Counted from the stretch's first letter, positions 2,845 to 57,125 are shown. The stretch: DNA of 64,000 nt from Thermoanaerobaculia bacterium (GCA_034665065.1 JAXDGL010000008.1:319412-383411); one strand, 5' to 3'. The notes: generated by a model not told the origin, from the letters alone. Numbers and translations: made by a program.

Positions 2845-4065
2845 ATGCTCAGCTCGCCCACGCCGCTTCTGCGGCGCGTAGCCATCGAGAATTTCAAGAG
2901 CATCGCAAAGTGCCGCGTAGATCTCGCTCCGCTGACGATCCTCGTCGGGCGCAACGGTTCTGGTAAGAGTAACTTTCTCGACGCACTGAAATTTGTTGCC
3001 GACGCGCTTCAGACGTCACTCGATCACGCGATCCGAAGCCGAGGAGGTATCGACGATGTGCGCCGTCGAAGCACCGGCCATCCCCGAAACTTTGGGATAC
3101 GTCTGGAGCTTCTTCTTCCAAACCTTCATAGGGCGGACTTCACATTCGAGATTGCCTCTCGTCCCGGAGGATCGTTCGCCGTAAAGAACGAAGAGCTTAA
3201 TGTAGTTTCGCCGAGCGGCTCGAAAACGGCAAATTATCACCGCGAGGAAAGGAGGGTTTCTTCCGAGAGCCATACAACAATGCCTCCTGTGCTCGACGAC
3301 CGCCTCTTTCTCGTCAACGCCGCTGGCCTTCCGGAATTTAGGCCCGCATATGATGCCCTCGTTGCGATGGGTTTCTATAACCTTGATCCCGAAGCGATGC
3401 GGGAGCCGCAGGCACCCGACGCTGGAGAGTTGTTGCATCACGATGGAAGTAACATTGCCAGCGTAGTGGGACGTTTGTCGGCACATCCGTCGGACGTTTT
3501 AGCTCGGATCAGTGACTACCTCCGGCACATTGTTCCTGCCGTCGAAAGTCTAGAGCGAGCACCTCTTGGACCGCGCGAGACGTTGCAGTTTTTGCAGAAG
3601 GTAAAAGGCTCTAAGTACCCGTGGCGTTTCTATGCCTCCAGTATGTCGGACGGCACGCTTCGGGCTCTCGGCGCGCTTGTCGCGGTTACACAATTTGCGG
3701 AAGGCGCACAGACGGTGCGACTAGTTGGTATAGAGGAACCTGAAACCGCACTTCATCCTGCCGCCGCTGGAGCGCTTATGGATGCCTTAAGGGAGGCGAC
3801 GAAACACACTCAGGTGATTGTGACCACGCATAGTGCCGATCTGCTTGATCAAGTCGATATCGATCGTGACGGGCTGCTGGTTGTCGTGTCGACAGACGGC
3901 GTCACCAGAATCGCCCCGGCGGATGAAGCTAGTATCAACGTTGTTCGTGAGCATCTCTACTCAGTCGGTGAACTGCTGCGAGCGGATCAACTTGTCCCCG
4001 ATCCTACAAGTCTCGAAGAACAGGATCAGCTGGAGTTGTTCTCAACCGGCACCGCGGCCCAATGA
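2845..4065 (+). CDS. ABC/OLD-type AAA ATPase (AAA_21/AAA_15-like)
   Basis: Walker A VGRNGSGKSNFLDAL near the N-terminus. Walker B/D-loop region RLVGIEEPETALHP and TTHS near the C-terminus. Architecture matches ATPase subunits of OLD/PARIS/AbiL/Gabija-like systems. Confidence 0.8.
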   Translation: MLSSPTPLLRRVAIENFKSIAKCRVDLAPLTILVGRNGSGKSNFLDALKFVADALQTSLDHAIRSRGGIDDVRRRSTGHPRNFGIRLELLLPNLHRADFTFEIASRPGGSFAVKNEELNVVSPSGSKTANYHREERRVSSESHTTMPPVLDDRLFLVNAAGLPEFRPAYDALVAMGFYNLDPEAMREPQAPDAGELLHHDGSNIASVVGRLSAHPSDVLARISDYLRHIVPAVESLERAPLGPRETLQFLQKVKGSKYPWRFYASSMSDGTLRALGALVAVTQFAEGAQTVRLVGIEEPETALHPAAAGALMDALREATKHTQVIVTTHSADLLDQVDIDRDGLLVVVSTDGVTRIAPADEASINVVREHLYSVGELLRADQLVPDPTSLEEQDQLELFSTGTAAQ

Positions 4066-4649
4066 GCCGCTTGGCCGTCTTCCCGATCGTCGAAGGGCAC
4101 GGCGAAGTCGAGTCGATTCGCACTCTGGTTACGCGCATCTGGACGGAACTTCTCCATCAGGACTACGTAGTTGTCTCGCGTCCTTTGCGCATTCCTCGGT
4201 CGAAAATCACGAAGAGCGCCGAGATTCGCCGGGCTGTAGAGCTCGGCCGCCGGAAGTTGCAATCCGAGCTCACGGATCGCCGACTGGTCCTTGTACTTTT
4301 CGACGCAGACAATGATTTGCCGTGCAGGATTGCGCCCCAGGTTCGCTTGCTTCTGCCTGACCCTGGAATCGACGTCAGCATCGTGGTGGCCAATCTGGAA
4401 TACGAGACGTGGTTCGTCGGTGCCGCAGAGTCGCTGAGCGACTTCATCGATGTGCCAGCTCATGTTCCCGATTCACCTGAGACAGAGCGGTGCCGCAAAG
4501 GTTGGGTCGAGCAACGAACGAAGTCAGGGCGATACAGCGAAACGATCGACCAGCCGAGGTTCACTGCTCGGATGGATCTCATCGCCTGTCGCAGACGGTG
4601 CCCTTCGTTCGACAAATTATGCCGTGAGCTGTTCGCTTACACCGTTTAA
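4062..4649 (+). CDS. TOPRIM-like (DUF4276-type) partner protein
   Basis: 195 aa. Start overlaps the ATPase stop (ATGA, translational coupling). Conserved Glu in FPIVEGHGE and LVLFDADND (DxD) resemble a TOPRIM catalytic core. Family assignment is from memory of DUF4276-like proteins. Confidence 0.65.
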   Translation: MSRLAVFPIVEGHGEVESIRTLVTRIWTELLHQDYVVVSRPLRIPRSKITKSAEIRRAVELGRRKLQSELTDRRLVLVLFDADNDLPCRIAPQVRLLLPDPGIDVSIVVANLEYETWFVGAAESLSDFIDVPAHVPDSPETERCRKGWVEQRTKSGRYSETIDQPRFTARMDLIACRRRCPSFDKLCRELFAYTV

Positions 4650-7254: not shown

Positions 7255-7537
7255 TTGATTGCGCTTCGCGCGTTGTCGGTTGTCGGTTGGTTGCGCTTCG
7301 CGCGTTGTCGGTTGTCGGCGCTTCGCGCCTTTTCTAGAACGATCCTGCCCCGTCTTGGGCGGCGAGTATTCCAAGCATGAAGAGTTCGATCAGCTCCCGA
7401 ATTCGACACTGGCGCAGACAACGCGCGAAGCGCAATCAACCGACAACCGACAACGCGCGCAGCGCAATAAGACAACGCGCGAAGCGCAATCAACCGACAA
7501 CCGACAACGCGCGAAGCGCAACAAGCGCAGCGCAATA
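7255..7537. repeat. composite direct+inverted repeat of a ~36-bp GC-rich unit
   Basis: Unit TTGATTGCGCTTCGCGCGTTGTCGGTTGTCGG occurs twice in direct orientation (7255-7328) and twice as reverse complement (7419-7537). Can fold into a long hairpin with a ~90-nt loop. Confidence 0.8.
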
Positions 7538-7553
7538 CCGATACACTCTCCGC

Positions 7554-8345
7554 GTGGACGCACTCCGCACGCTCTATCGCTATCGCCAGCTCATCGCGGC
7601 GCTCACCGCGCGCGATCTGAAGGCGCGGTACCGCGGCTCGATCCTTGGCTTTTTTTGGTCGCTGGCCAATCCGCTGCTCCTTCTGGCCGTCTATACGATC
7701 GTCTTCACCTTCTTTTTTCCGTCGAGTCTCATTCATCCCTATCCGTTGTTTCTCTTCTCCGGAATCCTGCCGTGGACCTTTTTCTCGGCGGCGGTACTCG
7801 AGTCGACGTCGGCGATCTCTTCGAACGCGGGGCTGATCAAAAAGGTGATGTTTCCCGCGGAGGCGCTGCCCTTGGTGACGGTGGCATCGCATCTGGTTCA
7901 CTTCGTTCTCGCCATGCCCGTCCTTTTGCTGGCCACGCTTGGCTTCGCGCTGCATGGCGACATTACGATCACCATGAACATCCTACTGGTGCCGCTGCTC
8001 ATGATTCTGCAGACGCTCTTCGTCGCCGGCATCGCCATGACCGTGTCGTCCGCGTCAGTGCTCTTTCGCGATCTGCGCGACATCCTCACGAACCTGATGC
8101 AGCTCGGATTCTTCGTGACGCCGATCCTCTTTCTGGTCGACCGCGTTCAGTCGCGCCCTCTCCGTGCGCTGCTGCGGCTCAACCCGATGACGCCCTTCGT
8201 CGTCTCGTATCAGGACGTGCTTTTCTTCGGACATCTGCCGGGCATCGCCGACATTCTGCTGATCCTCACGTACGCATTCGGATCGCTGGCGATCGGCGTG
8301 ATGGTGTTCGGCAGGCTGCGCGACACGCTGGCCGAGGCAATCTAG
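7554..8345 (+). CDS. ABC-2 type transporter permease (Wzm/KpsM-like polysaccharide exporter)
   Basis: LRTLYRYRQLIAALTARDLKARYRGSILGFFWSLANPLL is the typical ABC-2 N-terminus, followed by six predicted TM helices. The ORF track starts at 7377 inside the repeat region; the GTG at 7554 is the likely start. Confidence 0.8.
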   Translation: MDALRTLYRYRQLIAALTARDLKARYRGSILGFFWSLANPLLLLAVYTIVFTFFFPSSLIHPYPLFLFSGILPWTFFSAAVLESTSAISSNAGLIKKVMFPAEALPLVTVASHLVHFVLAMPVLLLATLGFALHGDITITMNILLVPLLMILQTLFVAGIAMTVSSASVLFRDLRDILTNLMQLGFFVTPILFLVDRVQSRPLRALLRLNPMTPFVVSYQDVLFFGHLPGIADILLILTYAFGSLAIGVMVFGRLRDTLAEAI

Positions 8346-8406
8346 CGGGCGCAACTGATCGCCGACGACTCACAGGAAGACCGCAACTCAAGCGGCTTCC
8401 GCGTCG

Positions 8407-8606
8407 AAAATGTTGAATGTTGAATGTTGAATGTTGAATGTTGAGTGTTGATCGTGCGCCGCCATCCTCCGTTCGTTCAACACTCAATACTCATCATTTA
8501 CAATTTAATGAATCCAACATTTAATATCCATCATTTAACATACAATATTAACATCCGCCATTTAACACTCAACATTTAACATTCAACATTCAACATTCAA
8601 ATGTTC
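8407..8606. repeat. AT-rich imperfect palindrome built from TTGAATG heptamer arrays
   Basis: 5x tandem TTGAATG (8409-8445) and its reverse complement CATTCAA x3 (8580-8606) flank a ~120-bp AT-rich core carrying repeated CATTTAACA-like motifs. Sharply lower GC than surrounding DNA. Confidence 0.8.
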
Positions 8607-8749
8607 GCTGAACCAGAATCATCGTTCTGCGCGAAGATTCTCAGCATCCAAGGTACAGCCGGCCTGGAAGACGCTTCGGCGCCGGCAACGGAACGACGAA
8701 CCCCCGCTCCCCACACCCATCCCGTATCATGTCGCGCCGCGGAGGTCGA

Positions 8750-10372
8750 ATGTCCAGACGTCTCCTCTGTTTCTCGTTCTTACTTCTTCTCGTTTCGCTT
8801 CCGGCTCTTGCCGACTCGCCGGGCGTGTACGCAATCACGGGTGGCACGATCCACCCGGCCAGCGGGCCGGAGATTGCGAACGGCGCGGTGATCATTCGCG
8901 ACGGTCTGATCGAATCGGTGGGCTACGCGGTGGCCATCCCGCTCGACGCCACGGTCATCGACGTGAAAGGGGGCCACATCTACCCCGGCCTCATCGATGC
9001 GATGACGTCGCTCGGTTTTCCAAGTGCGAGCGCGCCACGACGACGCGGTGGTGGGGGAGCAGCGGCGCGCGCGCCGGCAGCCGATCCGTTGCCCGAAACG
9101 GGGCCGTCGTTTCTCGCCTTTCGCGAGGCGAAGCTCTCCGACGATGACGTCGACGCCAAGCGCGCCACCGGCGTGCTGACGATCGTCACCGCACCTTCGT
9201 TCGGCATTTTTAACGGCCAGGCCGTCGCGCTGAACCTCGGCGGCGGGACGATGGAATCGCGCGTCGTTCGCAATCCCGCATGGCAGCAGATCTCGTTCAA
9301 TCCGCGGCCCGCGTGGACGTATCCCGATTCGCTGATGGGCGTGATCTCGTACATCAAACAGACGCTGCTCGACGCGCAGCAGCACGCGGTTGCGAAGTCG
9401 ATTTACGACAAGAATCCGGCCGGCTACAAACGTCCTGACGAGAGTCCATCGCTCGACGCCCTCGGCTCCGTGCTGCGCCGCGACGTGCCGCTCCTCTTCG
9501 TCGCCGACAGCGAGTTGATGATCCGTCGCGCCGAAGCAATCGCCAAAGAGTTCAACGTGCGGCTGATCATCGCCGGCGCGCGGCAGGGCTACAAGATCGC
9601 CGATGAGTTGAAATCGATCGGCGCGCCCGTGCTGGTCTCGACGAAATGGCCCGTCGCGCCGGCGGAGAAGGAGGATCGCGACGAGCAACCGCTGCGCGTC
9701 ATCCGCGACCGTCAGCTCGCGCCGACCACTCCCGCGGTGCTGGCAAAGAGCGACGTGCTCTTCGCGCTCGTCAGCGGTGCCGGGAAGACCGGCGACTTCA
9801 TTCCCGGGATACGCAAAGCGATCGAGAACGGGTTGTCTGCGGACGACGCGTTGCGCGCCACGACGATCAACGCAGCGAAGATCGCCGGCATCGACCGGCA
9901 GCTCGGATCGCTCGATCGCGGCAAGATCGCGAACATCGTCATCACCGACAAGCCGATCTTCGACAAGGAAGCGAAGGTGAAACGGATCTTCATCGACGGC
10001 CGCGAATCGAAAGTAGCTGTCGAGGATGAGAAAAAGAAACCGAGTGGCGGGACGGCGACGGCGGGAGCATCGGCGTCGAGCATCGACGGCAGTTGGAGCT
10101 TCATCGTCAAGACCACCGCCGGCGACGCGAACATCTCCGCGACTCTGCGCGTCGAGAATGGCCAGATCAGCGGCACGTTCTCCGGCGACCGCGGCTCCGG
10201 CAGCATCGGCAACGGAACGTTCGACGGCACGACGGTCGAGTTTTCGATCGCCGGCCGCGGCAAGGAAGAGGCGGGCGACTGGCTGTTCCACGGCACGCTG
10301 CACGGCGCGAACATGGAGGGAACTGTAGCGACGACGCTCGGCACGTTCCCGTTCACGGGGAGTAAGAAATGA
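8750..10372 (+). CDS. secreted amidohydrolase-family protein (paralog 1, metal-binding HxH replaced)
   Basis: Signal peptide [21 protein letters not shown]. Amidohydrolase fold motifs ([17 protein letters not shown]; C-terminal [13 protein letters not shown]). The canonical HxH after the GLID motif is absent. Confidence 0.8.
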
Positions 10373-10416
10373 AAATCATAAAAGACGTTGTCGGTTTTCG
10401 GTTGTCAGTTGTCTGC

Positions 10417-10566
10417 CATTCCGAGCCCGGCGGCGCCCCGGAGGGGCAAAGTACGGCGAGGAATCCCCTGCCGTTCGCCTCTACCGCCGCCCGCCCTTCG
10501 TTTCAAGAAGGGGATTCCTCGCCGCGCTCCACCCCTCCGGGGTTTCGCCGGCTCGGAATGACAGCG
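10417..10566. repeat. MITE-like palindromic element, family A copy 1
   Basis: Termini CATTCCGAGCCCGGCG … CGCCGGCTCGGAATGACAGCG. Inner inverted pair GAGGAATCCCCT/AGGGGATTCCTC. Related copies at 13401-13460 and 28873-29082. Confidence 0.8.
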
Positions 10567-11940
10567 ATGCCGCTGCTCCTCGCAGTTGCAGCGTTTGCGC
10601 AGACAACTCCTCCAACCAACGACATCCTCATCCGCGACGCGACGATCCTCACGATTACGCATGGCAAGATCGAGCATGGATCGATCCTCGTGCATGGCGG
10701 GAAGATCGCCGCGGTCGGCGGGAATGATCGCGTGACGGCGCCGGCGAATGCGACGGTCATCGACGCTGCCGGCAAGTTCGTGATGCCCGGCATCATCGAC
10801 ACGCACAGCCACTCCGCGGTCGAAGGAAGCGTCAACGAAGTCTCGCTGCCGAACACCGGGATGGTGCGCATCGGCGACGTTCTCACCAACGAAGACATCG
10901 ACGTCTATCGCCAGCTCGCCGGCGGGACGACGACGGCGCTCGTCCTGCACGGCTCGGCGAATCCGATCGGCGGCCAGTCGCAGATCGTGAAGTGGAAGTG
11001 GGGACATCCCATCTCCGAATGGCCGGTCTCCGATGCCCCTCGCACGATCAAGTTCGCCCTCGGCGAGAATCCGAAGTCGTCGAACTTCCGGCCGCCGCCG
11101 GGGATCCCTGCGCAATACCCGCAGACGCGCATGGGCGTTGAGGAAGTCATCCGCCAGTCGTTCACCGATGCGAAGGATTATCTGGCGCGATGGGACGACT
11201 TCGACGCGCGCAAGAAGCGTGGCGAGAATCCCATTCCGCCGCGGCGCGATCTCCTGATGGAGACCATGGCCGACATCCTACGCGGCAAGATTGACGTCCA
11301 CTCGCACTGCTACCGCGCCGACGAGATCATGATGCTGCTCAATGTCTCCGACGAGCAGGGCTTCAAGATTCGCGAGCTGCAGCATGTGCTGGAAGGCTAC
11401 AAAGTGGCGAAGGAGATCGCCGCGCACGGAGTCGGGGGCGGCACGTTCATCGACTGGTGGGGATTCAAGGCCGAGGCCTATGACGCGATTCCGTACAACG
11501 TGGCGCTGATGGATCGCGCCGGCGTGCTGACGTCCGTGAACTCAGACTCAGGCGAGCTGGCGCGGCATCTCAATCAGGACGCCGCGAAAGCGATGAAGTA
11601 CGGTGGACTGTCGGAAGAAGAAGCGCTGAAGCTCTGCACACTCAACGGCGCGAAACAGCTCCGGCTCGATCATCGAATCGGATCGGTCGACGTGGGCAAG
11701 GACGCCGATCTCGTGATCTGGAACGGCCATCCGCTGTCGGCGTACTCGCGCGTCGAGACGACGCTCGTCGATGGCGAGATCGTGTTTGACCGCCAGCGCG
11801 ATCTGGCCATGCGCGCGCAATTAGCCGCGGAAAAGAAGGATCGTTTGAAGAAAGAAGCGGACGACGAAGCAAAGAACAAGAAGCCATCGAAGCCCGGCAA
11901 GAGCGACGAAGAGACGAAGCCGGAGGCAACCAATGATTAA
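10558..11940 (+). CDS. secreted amidohydrolase (paralog 2, intact HxH)
   Basis: Signal peptide [29 protein letters not shown] metal-binding motif. C-terminal [15 protein letters not shown]. The ORF-track N-terminal extension (10369-10557) is translated MITE sequence. Confidence 0.85.
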
Positions 11941-13298: not shown

Positions 13299-13386
13299 CC
13301 AGTGATCAGTGATCAGTGATCGGTGGTCAGAAAGTCAGGACGCTGGATAGCGATTCCTGATCTGGTCACTGATCACTGATCACTTG
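13299..13386. terminator. hairpin of inverted AGTGATC heptamer arrays
   Basis: AGTGATCAGTGATCAGTGATCGG … CTGGTCACTGATCACTGATCACT, immediately after the amidohydrolase 3 stop. Confidence 0.55.
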
Positions 13387-13400
13387 ATTGTCGCTTCGTG

Positions 13401-13460
13401 GGCGGAGATTCCTCGCCACCCGCCGCTCCGCCCGCTCGGAATGACAGCGAGAATGACAGC
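13401..13460. repeat. family A MITE half-copy
   Basis: GGAGATTCCTCGCC…CGCTCGGAATGACAGCGAGAATGACAGCG matches the right half of the family A element. Confidence 0.6.
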
Positions 13461-13497
13461 GCAAAATTCGGCGCGCTGCGTGTGAGAGATCGTGTCG

Positions 13498-14007: not shown

Positions 14008-14169
14008 GCCCTGGACATACTCCAAGGGCGGTACCATGCAAGAATCTCAGTAGAATCAACGACTTAGTAAATCGTGCGCGATTTGAACGTCGCGAAATCA
14101 GACAGAGTGTCCTGATATCGTACGGTGAGAGATTCGCCTGATCGCGTGTATAGTCCGCCCAGTTCTTTC

Positions 14170-14335
14170 CCAATTTCTCTGAGTCAGTGAACGGGAAGCC
14201 GGTGTGATGCCGGCGCGGCCCCCGCCACTGTGACCGGCGACAACTCGCTCCACGATAGCCACTGCATCTACCGATGCGGGAAGGCGGCGCGACGAGGATG
14301 ACCCGGAAGCCAGGAGACCGGCTGGCTCGGAACCC
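14170..14335 (+). ncRNA. cobalamin (AdoCbl) riboswitch
   Basis: GGGAAGCCGGTGTGATGCCGGCGCGGCCCCCGCCACTGTGACCGG … GGGAAGGCGG … B12 box GAAGCCAGGAGACCGGC, directly upstream of the btuB-like receptor. Confidence 0.8.
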
Positions 14336-14371
14336 ACTTTTGATTCTCTTCTTCGGAGGGAAGGAGTCGTC

Positions 14372-16204
14372 ATGAAGCGTGTTCTCGCTGCGTCTCTGCT
14401 TTTTGCTGTTTCCTCGTTCGCTCAATCCACCCCACAACCCGTAACCATCAACGACCAGATCGTCGTCACTGCCTCGTCGTTACCGGAGACCTTGCAGGTC
14501 ACTCCTGCCGCTGTCAAGGTCATCACGCGTGCCGACATCGCCGCGCGCGCCGCGCGCGATGTCGCCGACGTTCTTCGCGAAGTTCCCGGCCTCGTGCTCG
14601 CGCGCAGCGGCTCGCCCGGCAAAGCGACCTCGCTCTTCACGCGCGGCGCGGCGTCGACGCAGACGCTCGTCCTCTGGAACGGGATCGCGTTGAACAATCC
14701 CTATTTTTCCGGCTACGACTGGGGACGTTTTTCGACCGCCGGCGTCGAACAGATCGAAGTCGTACGCGGACCCTACTCCGCGCTGTACGGTTCAGAAGCG
14801 ATGGCGGGAGTGATCAACGTATTGACCGCGCCGCGCACGAGCGCCGTTCATGGCGACTTCGAGAGCGGTAGCCATGGCTTGCGCAATGCCGCGCTCAACG
14901 CGACGTACGCCGCGGAAACGATCCAGGCCGCCGGCAGCTACGAGCATCGCGCCGATGATGGTTTCAACGCCAATGACGATTTCCGCCAGAACAGCGCCGG
15001 CGCGAACGCGAAATGGATTCCGTCCGACTCCTTTTCCATCGGCGCTTCCGGCCGCCACACTTCCTACGACCTCGGCATCCCCTTCAACACAAATGCCGCA
15101 GGCACCGCACTCGTGCCGAGCCTCGATCGCCGTCAGAGCGGGACGGAGACGCAGATCGCCATTCCGGTTAGTCTGACGCTCGGCCGCTTCATCAGCGATC
15201 TGACGCTCTCCGACAATCATCGCCGCGATGATTTCTCCGATCCTGCCGATCCGTTCACGACATCGACGTCGACCGATGCGAAGACGCGCCGCGCACGCTT
15301 GACGACGCGGTTTGTTACATCGGTAGGTACGATCGTCGCCGGCGGCGAGTACGAGCGCGACCTCGTCAGCGACGTCACCAACTACGGTCCGAATTTTCTC
15401 GCCAAGCGGCGCACCGATCACTCCCTCTTCATCGAAGACCGCTATTCGCATCCCATCAGCCAGACCACGCACTTCGAGCTCAGTGCCGGCGTCCGGCGCG
15501 ACCGCTTCGATACGTTCGGTGGACAGACGTCACCGCGCGTCGCCGCGGCCATCGTTCGAGGAACGACGAAATGGCGCGCCGCCTATGGCACCGGCTTCCG
15601 CGCTCCCTCCCTCGGCGAGTTGTACTACCCGTTCTTCGGTAACGCCGCGCTGAAAGCGGAGTCCAATCGAAGCTATGAGATCGGCTACGACGCGCCGATG
15701 GGACGCGACGGACTCTTCTCGCTGACATACTTCAACAGCCGTTACCGCAATCTCATCACCTTCGATCCCGTCACGTTCATCTCGCAGAACATCGGACGCG
15801 TGCGCGCCGACGGCGTCGAGGTCGGGATCACCAATCAGGTGAGCGCGAACGTCTACACCGCCTTCAGCTACACGTACCTGCATCGCGACGAAGATGAGAA
15901 GACCGGCCTGCGCCTGCTCCGCCGCCCGAAGCACTCCGGATCACTGGCGACCGGCTATCGCAACGGCGCGATCGACACGAACATCGCCATCCTCCGCACC
16001 GGCGAGCGCGACGACTCGCAAGCCGTTCTTCCATTCGGCCGCGTAACCAACAAGTCCTACACGACGATCGACGTCAACGTGCAATACCACATGGCGCACG
16101 TCTCCCCATTCGTAAAGATCGAGAACCTGCGCAACACGGCGTACCAGGAAGTCGTCGGCTACGCATCGCCGGGGCGAAGAGTGATCATCGGCGTGAAGTT
16201 CTAA
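14372..16204 (+). CDS. btuB: TonB-dependent outer-membrane cobalamin receptor
   Basis: Signal peptide, TonB-box/plug region (DQIVVTASS…VVRGPYSALYGSEAMAGVINVLT), C-terminal beta-barrel ending in F. Preceded by the B12 riboswitch. Confidence 0.85.
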   Translation: MKRVLAASLLFAVSSFAQSTPQPVTINDQIVVTASSLPETLQVTPAAVKVITRADIAARAARDVADVLREVPGLVLARSGSPGKATSLFTRGAASTQTLVLWNGIALNNPYFSGYDWGRFSTAGVEQIEVVRGPYSALYGSEAMAGVINVLTAPRTSAVHGDFESGSHGLRNAALNATYAAETIQAAGSYEHRADDGFNANDDFRQNSAGANAKWIPSDSFSIGASGRHTSYDLGIPFNTNAAGTALVPSLDRRQSGTETQIAIPVSLTLGRFISDLTLSDNHRRDDFSDPADPFTTSTSTDAKTRRARLTTRFVTSVGTIVAGGEYERDLVSDVTNYGPNFLAKRRTDHSLFIEDRYSHPISQTTHFELSAGVRRDRFDTFGGQTSPRVAAAIVRGTTKWRAAYGTGFRAPSLGELYYPFFGNAALKAESNRSYEIGYDAPMGRDGLFSLTYFNSRYRNLITFDPVTFISQNIGRVRADGVEVGITNQVSANVYTAFSYTYLHRDEDEKTGLRLLRRPKHSGSLATGYRNGAIDTNIAILRTGERDDSQAVLPFGRVTNKSYTTIDVNVQYHMAHVSPFVKIENLRNTAYQEVVGYASPGRRVIIGVKF

Positions 16205-16270
16205 TCTGCGTTTATCTGCGACATCTGCGGAACAGCTTTTATCCGCAGATGAACGCAGATTTACGCAGAT
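16204..16270. terminator. ATCTGCG-repeat hairpin
   Basis: ATCTGCGtttATCTGCGacATCTGCGG…CCGCAGATgaaCGCAGATttaCGCAGAT directly after the btuB stop. The same motif family recurs at 38241-38300 and 44090-44176. Confidence 0.6.
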
Positions 16271-16532
16271 GGAACCCTGGGAACGCGGGCGTCCCGCCCG
16301 CCGAGTGACATATACGGCCTGCATGAACGCATCGCCGCGGAACGCTGGCGTCTCGCCGGCTGGCCCGGCGCGCGTCCTCGCCGCCGAATGGTGAAGTTTG
16401 CGCCGGCGTTGTGTTACCAGCGAGAGATTCGGCAGCGAGACGCAGCCGATCCAGCCGGCGGGGACGCCAGCGTTCCGCCGCGTAAACTTGCGTTCGCGGT
16501 AGGTGTCACAGCGGGCGAGACGCCCGCGTTCC
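16268..16532. repeat. nested GC-rich palindrome (GGGAACGCGGGCGTCCCGCCCGC family)
   Basis: Outer arms CCCTGGGAACGCGGGCGTCCCGCCCGCC (16272-16300) and GCGGGCGAGACGCCCGCGTTCCCAGG (16505-16530). Inner arms at ~16340-16370 and 16448-16480. The same motif recurs at ~11945. Confidence 0.6.
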
Positions 16533-21701: not shown

Positions 21702-21850
21702 GTCCTCGTTGGCGGATACTGCGTGTGGGACGTACCGAATCGCGGATCGCCCGACACGATCGATGCGCTTGACCGCTGCACGTTCGTCTGCCGCTGGGAG
21801 TTAAGCGGAGTGCCGCTCCATCTCGGACGCCATCCGAGTTTTCTTCGCGT

Positions 21851-21880
21851 CCTCCGCGTCTCCGCGTGAAACGGTTTTGA
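21851..21880. repeat. family C repeat (CCTCCGCGTCTCCGCGTGAAACGGTTTTG)
   Basis: Same ~30-mer recurs at 27131-27183 (as a full palindrome) and 36238-36270. Confidence 0.7.
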
Positions 21881-27130: not shown

Positions 27131-27183
27131 GTCACGCGGAGACGCGGAGACGCGGAGGGAAGTGCTCCGCGTCTCCGCGTGAA
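27131..27183. terminator. family C perfect palindrome
   Basis: TCACGCGGAGACGCGGAGACGCGGAGggaagtgCTCCGCGTCTCCGCGTGA between convergent/divergent genes. Confidence 0.6.
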
Positions 27184-33869: not shown

Positions 33870-36002
33870 ATGTCCATTCACGCGCGTGTCGACGCGCTCC
33901 TCGGGCGGCTCGCTTCCACGCCGCAGTTTCCCACGCAGGGTCAGACGATTTTCGTCGACCTCGAGCGTCAGGAAGTGCGGCGCGCCTACATCCCCCTCCG
34001 CGTCGTCGAATCGCTCCTCGGCGGTCGCGGCGTGAACATGTACCTCCTCCACAACCTGCTCGATGAGACGCTCGATCCGATTCATCCTCACATTCCGCTG
34101 ATCTTCGGCACCGGCATCCTGACCTCGATGGTGCCGTCGGCGTCGCGCGGCAATGTGACGTCGTGGTCTCCTGAGTCGCGCGTCCTGATGGATTCGAACG
34201 CCGGCGATTACTTCCCGTCGTTCATGAAGCTCAATGCGATCGATCACCTCGTGCTCTACGGCAAAGCTGCGAAGTGGACGCTGCTTCATTTCGAGGGGAA
34301 CGAGCCGAAGTTCATCGACGCCGCGCCGTGGGTCGGTCTCGACAACATCGATCTTCGCGAACGGATCGCCGCAGATTTTCACGGGGTCGAAGGGAAGGAC
34401 TACGGACTCGCTGCGATCACGACCGCGGGCGAGAATCTCGTCCTCTGCTCCGGCATCATGGCCGGTCCGAAAGCCATCTACGCGCGCGGCGGTCCGGGCG
34501 CAAAGATGGGCGGACTGAATCTAAAAGCAGTTTTGATTCAGGGGCGTGCCGCCGATCTCACCACCGCGCGTCCGCACAAACTGCGCAATCGCGACGTCGC
34601 GCTCAAGCTCCTCTCGACATCCGTCGTCAAGAACGCGCTGAAGAAACGCGGTACGCCATTCCTCTACAAACCCTCGCGCATGCTCGGCGCGATGGGAACG
34701 AAGAACAACCAGGAGACGACGTGGACCGATAAGCTCGACGCCGAGAACATCGACCCGTACCGTCCCGGGATGGAGGGTTGCTTCGCCTGTCCGGTGAATT
34801 GCCGTCCGCTGAATGACATGAGTGGGGGTGGGGAGTGGGGAGTGGGGAGTGGGGAGTCTTCTGTGCGGGAGTCGGGAGTCGGGAGTCGGGAGTCGGAGAG
34901 AGAAACCTTCGTCCACTCAGTGCGTGAACAGAAAGCAGAACTAGAGAGCGGAGAGCGTGAGAATGTTGACGCGCTGCATTCCGCTCCGACCCTCGACTCC
35001 CGAAAACCGACTCCCGCGCCAGACAAATACATCAAAGGCGACGGCCCCGAGTACGTCACGCTCGGCAAGTTCGGACCGAACATCGGCATCAGCGAAGTCA
35101 CGCAGGTTCTTCGTCTCAACAACATCTGTAACGACCTCGGGCTCGATACCGCGTCCGCTGGATCTGCGATCGCATGGGCGATGGAGCTGTATCAGCGTGG
35201 CATCATCACAATCGAGCAGACGAAGCTCGATTTGACGTGGGGCAACTACGACGTGATCGAGCAGTTGTTGTTCATGATCGCGAAACGCGAGGGGATCGGT
35301 GACGCCATCGCTGATTCGTCGCAGGCCGTGGCCAACGGCAAGTATCCCGCTGAAGCGCTCGACTATCTGATGGCGGTGAAAGGACTGACACAGAGCGATC
35401 CTCACGACGCGCGCATTCTCAAGGCGTTCGCGCTCGGACTCGCCGTTGCCACGCGCGGGATGGATCATCTTCGCAACCGCGTCACGCTGGAGATCAACGC
35501 CAAAATCAACGACTCGCCGGATTTCAAAGCGGAGTTGTATGGCGGCGCCGTGTCCGCGGAGCCGAACAGCTACGAAGGCAAAGAGATCGCTGTCCGCCGC
35601 TGCGAGAACATCTACGCGGTCGGCGATTCGGTGGGCATGTGCCGATTCACGACGAAGCTCTTCAACTCGCCGTCGTTGCCGGGCTATCCGGAGTTCGTCG
35701 ATCAGGTGGCGAACGTCACCGGCATCGAGCTGACGAACGAACAGATCGACCACATCGGATTAAACGTCATGGGCGTCGAGCGTCTCATCAATCAGAAGAT
35801 CGGCGTGACGCGCGCGGATGACACGCTGCCGAAACGCTGGTTCGAAGAAGCAATCGGGGTCGGTCCGTACAAGGGCGAGAAAATCGATCGCGGCGAGTTC
35901 GACAAGATGCTCTCGCGCTTTTACGAGATCTCGAACCTGACCGCGGAAGGCCTGCCGAAGCCGGAATGGCGCGAAGAGCTCGAAGAGGTTCTGGCGTCAT
36001 GA
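33870..36002 (+). CDS. aor: aldehyde:ferredoxin oxidoreductase (tungsten/molybdopterin AOR family) with ~70-aa in-frame repeat-derived insertion
   Basis: AOR N-terminal domain. 4Fe-4S Cys motif GCFACPVNC. AOR-like C-terminal domain. 710 aa, versus ~600-aa AORs recalled from memory. Confidence 0.85.
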   Translation: MSIHARVDALLGRLASTPQFPTQGQTIFVDLERQEVRRAYIPLRVVESLLGGRGVNMYLLHNLLDETLDPIHPHIPLIFGTGILTSMVPSASRGNVTSWSPESRVLMDSNAGDYFPSFMKLNAIDHLVLYGKAAKWTLLHFEGNEPKFIDAAPWVGLDNIDLRERIAADFHGVEGKDYGLAAITTAGENLVLCSGIMAGPKAIYARGGPGAKMGGLNLKAVLIQGRAADLTTARPHKLRNRDVALKLLSTSVVKNALKKRGTPFLYKPSRMLGAMGTKNNQETTWTDKLDAENIDPYRPGMEGCFACPVNCRPLNDMSGGGEWGVGSGESSVRESGVGSRESERETFVHSVREQKAELESGERENVDALHSAPTLDSRKPTPAPDKYIKGDGPEYVTLGKFGPNIGISEVTQVLRLNNICNDLGLDTASAGSAIAWAMELYQRGIITIEQTKLDLTWGNYDVIEQLLFMIAKREGIGDAIADSSQAVANGKYPAEALDYLMAVKGLTQSDPHDARILKAFALGLAVATRGMDHLRNRVTLEINAKINDSPDFKAELYGGAVSAEPNSYEGKEIAVRRCENIYAVGDSVGMCRFTTKLFNSPSLPGYPEFVDQVANVTGIELTNEQIDHIGLNVMGVERLINQKIGVTRADDTLPKRWFEEAIGVGPYKGEKIDRGEFDKMLSRFYEISNLTAEGLPKPEWREELEEVLAS
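34822..35028. repeat. intragenic heptamer-array palindromic element (GGGGAGT / CGGGAGT arrays)
   Basis: GGGGAGT x4, CGGGAGT x3, then inverted CTCCGACCCTCGACTCCCGAAAACCGACTCCCGCG. Translated as MSGGGEWGVGSGESSVRESGVGSRESERETFVHSVREQKAELESGERENVDALHSAPTLDSRKPTPAP inside the AOR. Confidence 0.75.
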
Positions 36003-36226: not shown

Positions 36227-36237
36227 CCTCGCTCCGC

Positions 36238-36270
36238 GCCCTCCGCGTCTCCGCGTGAAACGGTTTTGGC
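36238..36270. repeat. family C repeat copy
   Basis: CCCTCCGCGTCTCCGCGTGAAACGGTTTTGG. Confidence 0.7.
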
Positions 36271-38240: not shown

Positions 38241-38334
38241 GTCCGCAGATTACGCAGATGTTCGCAGATGAAGATTGATTCCAATCTGCGTCAATCTGGG
38301 TAGTGGTCTAGTTTGACCGAAGGTTTGTAACATG
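38241..38334. repeat. left terminal inverted repeat of the 5.9-kb lower-GC island
   Basis: CCGCAGATTACGCAGATGTTCGCAGATGA…CTGGGTAGTGGTCTAGTTTGAccgaaggtTTGTAACATG. The reverse-complement partner lies at 44038-44176. Confidence 0.7.
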
Positions 38335-47320: not shown

Positions 47321-47683
47321 ATGAATAGCCGTGATCTTGCCCGTTATCTCGTACTCGGTGGTGTCGTCGCCGGCCTGACCGCCGGAACCAATCTGCGTGC
47401 CGGCCAGACGAAGTCGTCCGCGCTTTCGCTCAACCAGTCGTCGCAGGCCGTGAAGATGGCCGACACTGCGAAGGCTGCTGACAAGCACGCCTGTAAAGGC
47501 CTCAACGGCTGTAAGGGCCAGGGCGCCGACGGCAAGAATGAATGCAAAGGCCAGGGTTCCTGCGCGTCGAAGGAGTACAAGCACGACTGCGCCGGCCAGA
47601 ACGCCTGCAAGGGCCAGGGCGCTGGCGGCAAGAACGAGTGCAAAGGCAAGGGCGGCTGCGCCGTTCCGCCGAAGGCGTCGTAG
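47321..47683 (+). CDS. Cys/Gly/Lys-rich secreted RiPP-precursor-like protein (bufferin-like, 8 Cys)
   Basis: Signal peptide, then two half-repeats CKGLNGCKGQGADGKNECKGQGSCA / CAGQNACKGQGAGGKNECKGKGGCA (8 Cys). Immediately upstream of a DUF692/MNIO gene. A rho-independent hairpin follows (CCGGGGACGGGCgaatGCCCGTCC). Confidence 0.65.
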   Translation: MNSRDLARYLVLGGVVAGLTAGTNLRAGQTKSSALSLNQSSQAVKMADTAKAADKHACKGLNGCKGQGADGKNECKGQGSCASKEYKHDCAGQNACKGQGAGGKNECKGKGGCAVPPKAS

Positions 47684-47721: not shown

Positions 47722-47862
47722 GGGGTGGGGAGTGGGGGTGAAGTTAGAAGGGTGAAGAGTGAAGAGTGAAGAGTGAAGGGTGAAGAGTGAAAGTAAGACA
47801 ACTAATCCCTCTTCACACTTCACACTTCACTCTTCACACTTCACCCCTACTCCTCACCCCCA
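47722..47862. repeat. heptamer-array palindrome (GGGGAGT / GTGAAGA arrays)
   Basis: GGGGTGGGGAGTGGGGGTGAAG…GTGAAGA x5 … inverted TCTTCAC x4 …CCCCTACTCCTCACCCCCAC. Lies between the precursor gene and the MNIO gene. Confidence 0.75.
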
Positions 47863-47869
47863 CAAAACC

Positions 47870-48859
47870 ATGAATCGATTCCAACTTCCTGACCTTGGTA
47901 TCGGCATCGGCCTGAGGACCGTGCATTACGCGCACATCCTCGACAACGATCCGGCCATCGACTGGTTCGAAGCGCTCTCTGAGAACTATCTCGATACTGG
48001 TGGCCGTCCGCGTTACGTGCTCGAGAAAATCGCGGAGCGCTATCCGATCGTTCTGCACGGCGTGTCGATGTCGATCGGCGGAACCGATCCGCTCGACTTC
48101 GACTACCTTCGCAAACTGAAAGCGCTGGCACGTTCCGTCAATGCGCGCTGGATCTCCGATCATCTCTGCTGGACTGGAGTCAGCGGCCGCAACGTACACG
48201 ATCTGCTACCGATGCCTTACAACGAAGAGTCGCTTCGTCACACCGCGGAGCGCGTGCGGACCGTTTCCGAATTTCTGGAGACGCCGCTCGTCGTCGAGAA
48301 TCCATCGTCGTACGTCGAGTTCAAAGCATCGACGATGACGGAGTGGGATTTTCTCGCCGCGCTGGGCGAGCAGAGTGATTGCGGCTTGCTCCTCGACGTG
48401 AACAACATCTACGTCAGCTCGTTCAATCACAGTTTCGATCCGAATACCTACGTCGACGCGATCCCCGCCGACCGCGTCGTACAGGTTCATCTCGCCGGCC
48501 ACGCCAATCACGGTACGCACATCATCGACACGCACGACAACTTCGTGATCGACGAGGTGTGGCAGCTCTACGCACGCGCTAGCGCACGCATCGGCAATGT
48601 CTCGACGCTGATGGAGTGGGATGCGGATATCCCCGATTTCGAGACGGTGCATGCCGAGGCGCGGAAGGCGGAGGCGTTTCGTGAATCGGGGAGTGGGGGG
48701 TGGGGAGTGGGGAGTGGGAGAAAAGGCGATACGCTCCAAGCTGCGATCGCCGAGTCGCAAGTAGAAGACTCAGCGCCCGCCGAAACTCCGGTCCTCTTAT
48801 CCCCGAAACCCGACCACCGACATGCGACTCCCGCAACAGAGGCTCCCCTTGCCATCTGA
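47870..48859 (+). CDS. DUF692 / MNIO family enzyme (MbnB/BufB-like) with repeat-derived C-terminal extension
   Basis: MNRFQLPDLGIGIGLRTVHYAHIL…DWFE…ENY xylose-isomerase-like TIM-barrel signature of DUF692. The C-terminal ~55 aa (…ESGSGGWGVGSG…SPKPDHRHATPATEAP) is encoded by a GGGGAGT-family repeat (48686-48850). Confidence 0.85.
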   Translation: MNRFQLPDLGIGIGLRTVHYAHILDNDPAIDWFEALSENYLDTGGRPRYVLEKIAERYPIVLHGVSMSIGGTDPLDFDYLRKLKALARSVNARWISDHLCWTGVSGRNVHDLLPMPYNEESLRHTAERVRTVSEFLETPLVVENPSSYVEFKASTMTEWDFLAALGEQSDCGLLLDVNNIYVSSFNHSFDPNTYVDAIPADRVVQVHLAGHANHGTHIIDTHDNFVIDEVWQLYARASARIGNVSTLMEWDADIPDFETVHAEARKAEAFRESGSGGWGVGSGRKGDTLQAAIAESQVEDSAPAETPVLLSPKPDHRHATPATEAPLAI

Positions 48860-56750: not shown

Positions 56751-56835
56751 TCGAGTTGATTATGACGAGAAGGTTCCGACCTGCAAGGCGAGGCCGGTGA
56801 ATGGTTGGTTTCGGGTGATGAATGGTTGGATCTTG

Positions 56836-56998
56836 CGGTTGCGCGGTTGCGCGGTTGCGCGGTTGCGCGGTTGTGAGGTTACGGAGTTGCGAGGTTTCTG
56901 AGTAGATCCTTCGCAGCAACCCAGCAACCCAGCAACCCGGCACCTCAGCACCTCAGCAACCAACAACTCAGCAACCGCGCGAGACCGCAACCCACTGC
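56836..56998. repeat. imperfect palindrome of GGTTGCGC octamer arrays
   Basis: GGTTGCGC x4 + GGTTGTGAGG… then inverted CAGCAACC x3, CAGCACCT x2…. Confidence 0.7.
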
Positions 56999-57027: not shown

Positions 57028-57125
57028 GGAGGCGAATGGGGTCTGGTGGCTCCCGCGGTCTTCAAAACCGTTGTTTCGGCGCGGAAGCGTCGAAGGGTCG
57101 GTTCGATTCCGACGCGCCTCCGCCA
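57028..57125 (+). tRNA. selC: tRNA-Sec (selenocysteine, anticodon UCA)
   Basis: 98 nt. Acceptor GGAGGCG(A)/GCGCCTCC, 6-bp D-stem with 4-nt loop (GGGGTC-TGGT-GGCTCC), anticodon loop CTTCAAA (UCA), long variable arm, T-arm GTCGG-TTCGATT-CCGAC, discriminator G, CCA. Confidence 0.8.

Follow-up and report, generated by a model that had tools for sequence, protein, structure and literature searches.

A 64,000-nt stretch from a Thermoanaerobaculia bacterium (GCA_034665065.1, JAXDGL010000008.1:319412-383411), referred to as the window in the following and derived from a 453-kb soil-metagenome contig of the Joint Genome Institute (JGI), contains an AT-rich element of 192 nt with a strict 7-nt periodicity (8409-8600) between a wzm-like ABC-2 permease gene and an amidohydrolase operon. 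Its presence raises the question of what kind of element it represents, how it is maintained, and whether it acts on the adjacent genes. The original prediction, which was made from the sequence alone, had considered a multi-site array for a regulator, an iteron cluster of a replication or partition site, or a non-autonomous element. We found that the element is a copy of a class of intergenic palindromes, consisting of a tandem array of 7-8-nt units, a short unrelated loop, and a reverse-complement array. Paired heptamer and octamer palindromes have been noticed previously with their function unexplained, and the new aspects here are the unit AATGTTG and the lineage. Regarding origin and action, we lean towards the view that the element is a long hairpin-forming palindrome, which is shaped by slippage and arm-to-arm copying and would act through its structure.

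Architecture of the palindrome

The element is located between the TAG stop codon of wzm (8343-8345) and the ATG of the amidohydrolase gene (8750). The predicted periodic, mirrored motif array was confirmed by reading the sequence, by Tandem Repeats Finder (TRF), and by an inverted-repeat search. The same approaches defined the 5' arm (8409-8451, plus strand), which consists of five AATGTTG units followed by the variant unit AGTGTTG and was recognized by TRF with a period of 7, 6.1 copies, and 97% matches. Five tandem TTGAATG units had been predicted on this side; the tandem array is indeed present, but in the TTGAATG register, it shows four perfect units plus TTGAGTG. The arm is followed by a GC-rich, non-repetitive loop of 24 nt (8452-8475, TCGTGCGCCGCCATCCTCCGTTCG), which weakly resembles (CCATCC..CGTTC) the loop of an AATGTTG array in the related locus L011 (see below). 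On the other side, the right array extends over 125 nt (8476-8600) and contains the reverse-complement unit CAACATT about 18 times, ending with the three perfect CATTCAA copies at 8580-8600 that had also been predicted. The palindrome, termed imperfect in the original prediction, has unequal arms, with 6 units on the left and about 18 on the right.

Directly behind the loop, the inner 3' stem (8477-8489, plus strand, TCAACACTCAATA) pairs with 8439-8451 according to minimum free energy structures and the inverted repeat; the variant unit of the left arm, GAGTG, is compensated by CACTC in this stem. It is followed by a row of decayed CAACATT units (8490-8563, plus strand), recognized by TRF and folding, which form a bulge on the 3' side. 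These inner units have decayed mostly by C-to-T changes, giving rise to the motif CATTTAACA; the core previously interpreted as an accumulation of a second motif is, therefore, composed of right-arm units, whose 7-nt register is still detected by TRF. Between 8515 and 8600, TRF reported CAACATT with 12.4 copies and 65% matches and a period of 14 with 76% matches, and a 41-nt tandem duplication (1.9 copies) was found inside the decayed array. The outer 3' arm (8564-8600, plus strand), identified by the inverted-repeat search and by folding, comprises 37 nt with 97% complementarity to 8413-8449; in an alternative register, which is one unit off, 8569-8597 pairs with 8409-8437.

The 14-mer TTGAATGTTGAATG occurs 11 times with up to two mismatches, all within 8413-8600 and none elsewhere in the window, compared to a mean of 0.21 in shuffled sequences, with 0 of 100 shuffles reaching 11. 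The GC content falls to 0.26-0.35 at the element versus 0.61 for the whole window, mainly because the AATGTTG unit itself has a GC content of 29%. Folding of 8395-8615 yielded predicted energies of -67.7 kcal/mol (z -9.5) for RNA of the plus strand, -76.7 kcal/mol (z -7.0) for RNA of the minus strand, and -39.4 kcal/mol (z -6.6) for DNA, and no shuffled sequence was as stable on the RNA or DNA level. The predicted fold has two tiers, consisting of an outer stem of 29-37 bp and an inner 13-bp stem (8439-8451/8477-8489), with an 83-nt bulge of decayed units. As shown by these models, a near-perfect stem of 29-37 bp can form on either strand.

The element is present as a whole and in identical form in JGI contig L001, and the end of the right array (from 8571 onward) and the following DNA are identical in the independent assembly L002. 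Because of this identity in two assemblies, the 43-nt length of the left arm, and the mostly unique decayed units of the right array, it is unlikely that the palindrome originated from metagenome misassembly. The L002 contig stops inside the array.

A dispersed class of palindromes and its turnover

Relatives of the amidohydrolase with 60-89% identity were present in 22 loci of metagenome-assembled genomes from Thermoanaerobaculia and other Acidobacteriota. These loci and the window, together about 420 kb, were subjected to an array census by TRF combined with a local search for reverse-complement partners. The census yielded 152 arrays with periods of 5-12, including 100 intergenic ones, 70 of which have a period of 7. 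An inverted partner was found within 350 nt for 83 of the 152 arrays, versus 0 of 152 in a control using reversed but not complemented sequences. From these data, we obtained 53 distinct palindromes with many different 7-8-nt units, a count which overstates their independence because many are orthologs of a few sites. The 5' arm contains more G than C in 45 of the 53 palindromes. One-sided arrays were also detected by TRF in the window, where AATGTTG is restricted to one locus and other units recur at several sites.

The turnover of the units became apparent from the orthologous spacer in front of the amidohydrolase gene, which is preceded in the relatives by a divergent mglA-like GTPase gene. 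This spacer is framed by conserved blocks, TTGACT-N17-TACGCT beside mglA and CCCGTATCAT...GGAGG beside the amidohydrolase gene, which may represent core promoters. It contains a GGGGAGT palindrome in L003, L007, L012, L014, and L016, a GGGAGTC/GGTGTCG palindrome in L004, L005, L009, and L013, a GGTTGTC palindrome in L008, L015, and L017, and palindromes with the units GTTGCTNN in L006 and GTTCCTCG in L021; no palindrome was found in the spacers of L010, L018, L019, and L022. The units can be arranged in a series of one-base changes (GGGGAGT > CGGGAGT > CGGGTGT > CGGTTGT), and the switches involve both arms together. At the same spacer site of L011, an (AATGTTG)5 array is nested in the GGGGAGT palindrome. 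Arrays of AATGTTG are thus present in L011 and the window and not in L003-L006.

An exact search of metagenomes for (TTGAATG)3 revealed the family in at least 120 contigs with GC contents of 34-68%, and 41 stretches with the TTGAATG pattern were found in viral contigs. The element belongs, therefore, to a repeat family and is not a unique low-complexity remnant, the outcome that the prediction had itself named as speaking against it. Among the matches listed, 53 of 120 loci have an inverted partner at a distance of up to 300 nt, with 35 of them being convergent as in the window and 18 showing the opposite orientation. The convergent copies have stereotyped arms of about 5 units. Their loops are short, variable, and rich in GC, their flanks are unrelated, and in many copies, a single TTCAATG variant unit is matched by CATTGAA. 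Convergent copies often start a few nt past a stop codon, or abut or contain one, which we use only qualitatively because the open reading frame (ORF) heuristic applied to the metagenome loci is noisy, the C-rich strand lacking stop codons. The opposite-oriented type contains A-tracts and T-tracts and resembles bidirectional intrinsic terminators. Another 157 arrays of period 7 are present on the same metagenome contigs, and 67 of them are paired.

The two arms of these hairpins do not vary independently. Over 595 paired positions of 18 convergent hairpins, we observed 10 compensated double variants versus 0.54 expected under independent arms. Moreover, the arms of four orthologous pairs are 88-100% identical, compared to 60-72% for the loops, which also differ in length, and 71-87% for the coding flanks. 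Orthologous pairs differ by 1-2 units, and near-identical contigs of a gut type by 3 versus 4 units. Nesting of TTGAATG hairpins inside older locus-specific stems was seen only in L068, L085, and L011, and the complementarity of the flanks was not significantly different from that of cross-locus controls (p = 0.15).

Two groups of contigs deserve separate mention. A phage lineage with a GC content of about 0.46 (viral contigs L164, L167, L170, L172, L173, L180, and L190 and metagenome contig L047) carries several TTGAATG hairpins per genome with the conserved loop TTGCCTAACGGACTCAAyGGCGyTAGCCTAA, and some of these copies are flanked by an A-run and a T-run. In contigs of lower GC content, partly from the human gut, which we take as Bacteroidetes-like (L083, L111, L124, L126, L141; L036, L065, L090, L102, L133), unpaired (CAACATT)3-4 arrays are located directly upstream of start codons and followed by an A-run. 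Their copy number varies among near-identical strains, and they resemble the TAACTGA 5'-leader repeats reviewed by MacGregor.

Several other palindromes were identified in the window. The composite palindrome at 7255-7525, located between an FHA gene and wzm, consists of GTTGTCG units and GCGCTTCGCGC mini-hairpins resembling UUCG tetraloops. A comparison with JGI contig L001 over 20.4 kb revealed a single mismatch and, as the only length difference, a change in the left arm of this palindrome, whose 32-nt unit is present in three copies in L001 (8474-8776) and in two in the window; slippage is seen directly in this change. The remaining palindromes are (CAGTGAT)4, loop, (ATCACTG)3 at 13300-13384, (GTGAAGA)n, loop, (TCTTCAC)n at 47736-47846, and two of octamers, namely (ACGCGGAG)3, loop, (CTCCGCGT)2 at 27134-27180 and (GCGGTTGC)n, loop, (CAGCAACC)n at 56835-56992. 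The latter is located 36 nt upstream of a tRNA-Sec gene (57028-57121, Rfam 71 bits), and its octamer resembles the class 1 consensus GTTGCTYN of Geobacter metallireducens (see below). The octamer TCTCCGCG / ACGCGGAG is arrayed at three unlinked sites (21842-21867, 27134-27180, and 36232-36256) and is one base off the class 2 consensus TCTCCGTS of the same species.

Two further types of arrays differ from this pattern. Inverted 10-mer arrays (CGCAGATGAA / TTCATCTGCG) occur in the window (16203-16271 and 38244-38298), L004 (17523-17593), L008 (18812-18877), L009 (10955-11023), and L012 (17311-17694); because this unit is kept between genomes, unlike the heptamers, these arrays may be another kind of site, e.g., for protein binding or termination. 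G-rich arrays with weak or no inverted partners, (GAGTGGG)5 followed by (GAGTCGG)4 at 34820-35017 and (GGGGAGT)4 at 48688-48718, were assigned to ORFs by a crude gene caller, probably wrongly. Judging from their sequence, GGGGAGT arrays could form G-quadruplexes.

The synteny breakpoint and neighbouring genes

Upstream of the element, the wzm-like gene (7554-8345, plus strand) is intact and codes for an ABC-2 permease of 263 aa with a GTG start. An ATG-initiated ORF (7377-8345) would cross the right arm of the 7255-7525 palindrome, and the GTG at 7554 is taken as the real start. The homologs of Wzm carry PF01061 and are annotated as export permeases for polysaccharides or lipopolysaccharides. 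In the close homologous loci compared (L148-L156), wzm is always directly adjacent to a wzt ATPase gene, whose product carries ABC_tran and Wzt_C in the relatives, and accompanied by a glycosyltransferase (GT2) gene. The wzt, glycosyltransferase, and mglA genes are all absent from the 64-kb window. Downstream of the element, the first amidohydrolase gene (8750-10372, plus strand) codes for a protein of 540 aa with a signal peptide.

According to the BLAST boundaries, the region homologous to the wzm loci ends at 8347 (2 nt past the TAG), and that homologous to the amidohydrolase loci (L003/L011) begins at 8702, from where the DNA is collinear with a 5.9-Mb chromosome of a relative. Because of these boundaries, the palindrome is situated within 354 bp without a counterpart in either context, flanked by left (8348-8408) and right (8601-8701) junction DNA without homologs among the compared relatives. 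The right breakpoint lies inside an older GGGGAGT palindrome: the 18 nt at 8702-8719 (plus strand, CCCCCGCTCCCCACACCC) correspond to the 3' arm of the GGGGAGT/ACTCCCC hairpin of L003, L007, L012, L014, and L016, and the 5' arm was lost at the synteny break. Judging from these boundaries, the join of two synteny blocks left wzm without wzt and cut the older hairpin. The following block (8720-8749, plus strand, ATCCCGTATCATGTCGCGCCGCGGAGGTCGA) is kept in 16 relatives and possibly contains the -10 region (TATCAT) and the Shine-Dalgarno sequence (GGAGG) of the amidohydrolase operon. L011 lacks the rearrangement and yet carries an AATGTTG array at this site, so the array is probably older than the join. 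It appears likelier that the palindrome cluster served as a fragile site than that the array was made during repair.

Other palindromic elements resembling MITEs (miniature inverted-repeat transposable elements) were observed inside or beside heptamer hairpins in the window (10387-10566 and 13390-13465), L017 (9586-9870 and 14496-14780), and L015 (14513-14790), with related termini (TGTCATTCTGAGCG.. in L017 and TGCCATTCCGAGCC.. in the window). The two copies of L017 measure about 285 nt, share 83% identity, and are located inside two different GTTGTCG palindromes, with a related copy in L015. In the window, a MITE-like element of 153 nt (10414-10566) directly follows a (GTTGTCG)4 arm and is found at the same site in L006, L011, L014, and L016. 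The JGI start of the second amidohydrolase gene (10369) reads through the array and this element, and the true start is likely the ATG at 10567, which is followed by a signal peptide. We also considered the junction DNA as a MITE derivative, but 8346-8408 and 8601-8701 showed no significant similarity to the local MITE-like elements.

Some additional features of the window were recorded. The region 2845-4065 strongly matches the PADLOC candidate defence protein HEC-01A (E 5e-157), and 4383-4649 codes for a fragment of 88 aa whose match to HEC-01B is confined to the C-terminal half, suggesting that the B gene is truncated. Because the acyl-CoA dehydrogenase and FHA genes of L149 are only 245 nt apart, the HEC-01 block and a peptidase M49 gene represent extra DNA compared to this locus. 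A cobalamin riboswitch (14168-14340, 113 bits) precedes a TonB-dependent receptor gene, and two repeats appear to be coding, namely a tandem repeat of 237 nt (60739-61666, 3.9 copies, 83% matches) and one of 33 nt for a Gly/Cys-rich motif (47513-47654).

Possible modes of action and known systems

In the scenario we favour, the arrays would grow, shrink, and stay homogeneous by slipped-strand mispairing, and the arms would stay complementary by each templating the other when folded, either via intrastrand template switching or via hairpin-directed correction. The instability of long perfect palindromes probably sets a limit to their length. The observed MITE-like elements in hairpin loops and the 32-nt unit change count for such dynamics at the DNA level. 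This copy appears to have kept only the 37-bp stem, with the rest of the right array decaying towards AT. Any role would be exerted through structure rather than sequence. As DNA, the element is predicted to allow cruciform extrusion, and its arms should melt easily in this GC-rich genome because of their GC content of 29%; as read-through RNA from wzm, it is predicted to fold into a long stem-loop, which could either block or undergo cleavage. Such a stem-loop or cruciform would insulate the orphan wzm gene from the amidohydrolase operon, which keeps its own promoter-like block. Palindromes of this type may, in addition, represent fragile sites and points of entry for mobile DNA, and a generic stem-loop or cruciform together with a fragile site would probably represent the sole action. 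Among 22 palindromes between co-directional genes, the predicted RNA was more stable in sense orientation for 10 and in antisense orientation for 12, with 70 versus 86 G-U pairs, respectively. This absence of a bias leaves a strand-specific RNA role unsupported, and palindromes also occupy spacers between divergent genes.

Several observations weigh against this scenario. The arms are conserved above the level of the coding flanks, they show a stereotyped length of 5 units, and phages contain multiple hairpins with a conserved loop; these features could instead reflect a selected specific function or a dedicated mobilizing or binding factor. Some units resemble the Geobacter sequences GTTGCTYN, TCTCCGTS, and MTYCTGA, which is not predicted by pure local slippage, and neither the dominance of period 7 nor the polarity bias (45 of 53 palindromes with G>C; 35 versus 18 TTGAATG loci) is accounted for. 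The limited independence of the 53 palindromes also has to be considered here, and in this particular copy, a GC-rich loop of 24 nt and a bulge of 83 nt would stand in the way of cruciform extrusion.

Among the three original readings, that of a non-autonomous element comes nearest. The arms of such a mobile hairpin, similar to MITEs or repetitive extragenic palindromic (REP) sequences, would serve as terminal inverted repeats for a trans-acting enzyme, e.g., a single-strand-DNA transposase similar to Y1 or REP-associated (RAYT) enzymes, and the element would have been inserted upstream of the amidohydrolase operon. Hairpins with stereotyped arms of about 5 units, often with one TTCAATG/CATTGAA unit, are indeed found at unrelated loci of many contigs. 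Several copies with a conserved loop can occur on one phage contig, and the orthologous site contains the array in L011 and the window but not in L003-L006. The nested array of L011 and the units in common with Geobacter, where insertion sequence (IS) elements sit at fixed distances from such sites, would fit as well. However, 18 aligned boundaries revealed no target-site duplication or conserved termini beyond the arrays, soil copies have unrelated loops, orthologs show a rapid loop divergence, and the arm lengths vary by whole units. Moreover, the unit types constitute a one-substitution series at one site, fitting in-situ evolution, the nesting test was not significant (p = 0.15), and no transposase was identified in the 64 kb of genome covered, for which no systematic RAYT scan was made. 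We regard mobility as a rather unlikely explanation, and assign a similarly low likelihood to an RNA-level element acting on the wzm transcript as a terminator, attenuator, 3'-end stabilizer, or RNase III processing site. Such a role would be consistent with the very stable predicted RNA fold, the location of the element 63 nt after the wzm stop codon and of sister elements 13-18 nt after stop codons, the frequent contact of TTGAATG hairpins with neighbouring stop codons, the terminator-like A-/T-tracts of the opposite-oriented family, the occurrence in phages, which suggests a function, and the transcription of most of the comparable Xanthomonas repeats (PMC4692102). However, no intrinsic terminator was called at 8409-8600, where the AT-rich stem is followed by ATGTTCGCTG without a T-tract, sense strands show no excess in stability or G-U pairs, and the same design occurs between divergent genes with promoter-like blocks, where no terminator is needed. 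Rfam contained no match at gathering score, and at E <= 1 only sub-threshold hairpins of eukaryotic miRNA precursors appeared; a promoter scan of the element returned a single promoter-like match at chance level.

The element might also be functionless debris, i.e., a slippage-prone microsatellite with an accidental inverted copy at the scar of a rearrangement repair. The position within 354 bp of novel junction DNA, the decay of the right array towards AT, and the hypervariability of the class agree with this idea. Because inverted partners are in excess (83 versus 0 of 152), the arms co-vary, and the family extends over hundreds of contigs with a stereotyped arm length, the arrangement is not accidental, though the element may be neutral, and we consider debris quite improbable. 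Even more doubtful is a binding-site array for a nucleoid-associated or regulatory protein, such as integration host factor (IHF) or HU as proposed for Geobacter, or for a single-strand binder of the cold-shock type stepping by 7 nt. The strict periodicity and inverted symmetry, the conservation of arms above loops, the similar units in distant phyla, the location upstream of an operon, and the literature on CspB, which binds one heptamer per protein, would suit such an array. Nevertheless, many unrelated units share the design in one genome, the unit was replaced at the orthologous site, variants are compensated across the arms instead of being purged, and the proximal right array has decayed, all of which disfavours the sequence-specific regulator array of the original prediction. 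The third original reading, an iteron cluster of a replication origin or partition site, has only AT-richness and repeats in its favour and is effectively refuted. Iterons usually measure about 17-22 bp, compared to 7-nt units in inverted arrays here; the neighbours are wzm and amidohydrolases without rep, par, or dnaA genes nearby, chromosomal DNA collinear with that of relatives follows downstream of 8702, no GC-skew switch was seen, and similar elements occur every few kb.

A broader possibility is a cross-phylum system with a limited repertoire of units common to Acidobacteriota, Geobacter, Xanthomonas, Bacteroidetes-type genomes, and phages, which would be generated or propagated by a dedicated machinery with a 7-nt register. 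Examples would be a single-strand-DNA transposase, a polymerase that adds repeats at both 3' ends during break repair, or a binding protein stepping along heptamers. If true, such a system would account for the prevalence of period 7, for the convergent polarity and stereotyped arm length, for mobile DNA being inserted into loops, and for the association with rearrangement junctions such as the present one. We consider this system unlikely, but keep a dedicated machinery in mind because period 7, polarity, arm length, cross-phylum units, and the phage copies with conserved loops are otherwise unexplained.

The lineage represents a particularly rich natural experiment, in which dozens of palindromes with many different units are found over a few tens of kb. 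It combines orthologous unit swaps in which the arms are kept complementary, copy-number differences between near-identical sequences, and mobile DNA in loops, and one copy is located on the synteny breakpoint by which a transporter gene was orphaned. Provided that the arms co-evolve by hairpin-templated copying, the palindrome dynamics of uncultured soil bacteria could be read from these loci. In practical terms, the elements break metagenome assemblies, as in the case of L002, mislead gene callers, which extended two ORF starts through hairpins in this window, and mimic regulatory arrays.

A literature search retrieved no paper on such elements in Acidobacteriota, and we compared them to repeats of other bacteria. 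REP sequences and the bacterial interspersed mosaic elements (BIMEs) built from them are imperfect palindromes of 20-40 nt with a GTAG/CGTC tag at the 5' end and are associated with RAYT (Y1) transposases (see also PMC3733652). MITEs possess conserved internal sequences, terminal inverted repeats, and target-site duplications. Both REP/BIME and MITEs such as the Correia elements are often located after stop codons and targeted by IS elements, and roles in mRNA stability, termination, and supercoiling have been proposed. The palindromes described here are similarly dispersed and extragenic and have conserved stems. Unlike REP, the element measures 192 nt, and its arms begin with AATG without a GTAG/CGTC tag; unlike MITEs, the soil copies have unrelated loops, the one exception being the phage lineage whose loop is conserved. 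Terminal inverted repeats could be provided by the arms, but no duplication was evident at the 18 aligned boundaries.

The heptamer repeats of cyanobacteria are known as short tandemly repeated repetitive (STRR) sequences. MacGregor (2015) reviews unpaired heptamer arrays, including TAACTGA of Beggiatoaceae and Bacteroidetes and GGGGA(C/T)T of cyanobacteria (PMC4679880). Common features with our palindromes are intergenic tandem heptamers, several unit families, a patchy distribution across phyla, and copy-number variation. In contrast to the element of the window, most STRR and TAACTGA repeats are direct arrays without a paired partner, frequently located immediately upstream of start codons, and the gut-type (CAACATT)n arrays of L083 and L036 are closer to them.

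Paired opposite-strand sites of four GTTGCTYN, three TCTCCGTS, or five MTYCTGA units were reported for Geobacter metallireducens and named 'putative global regulator binding sites' of classes 1-3 (Aklujkar et al. 2009, PMC2700814). The authors proposed binding of IHF or HU to these sites and found IS elements at a fixed distance from them. Like our palindromes, they consist of 3-5 tandem 7-8-nt units per site, arranged as opposite-strand pairs with variable spacing, and of several unit classes per genome. AATGTTG is not among the three consensus sequences. Matches or near-matches to these consensus sequences, namely GTTGCTGA in L006, TCTCCGCG in the window (21842/27134/36232), and TTCTGAT in L013, are given as a lead only.

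Heptamer repeats are over-represented in bacterial intergenic DNA for unexplained reasons, and Xanthomonas contains about 185 (GGGAATC)n arrays per genome, mostly intergenic and typically of about 4 units (Rehm et al. 2015, PMC4692102). In 70-75 cases per genome, two such arrays are close to each other on opposite strands in convergent orientation; Rehm et al. discussed stem-loops, cruciforms, and G-quadruplexes, noted a raised variability of the flanks, and left the function unexplained (PMC4692102). Unlike GGGAATC, which forms G-quadruplexes in vitro, AATGTTG has no G run and cannot form them, but the sister elements with GGGGAGT units would satisfy the G-tract criterion of the Xanthomonas repeats. 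Furthermore, Xanthomonas belongs to a different phylum and uses one dominant unit per genome, compared to many in this lineage. Nevertheless, both systems share tandem heptamers (6.1 copies here), a convergent reverse-complement array, an intergenic location, and hypervariability between relatives.

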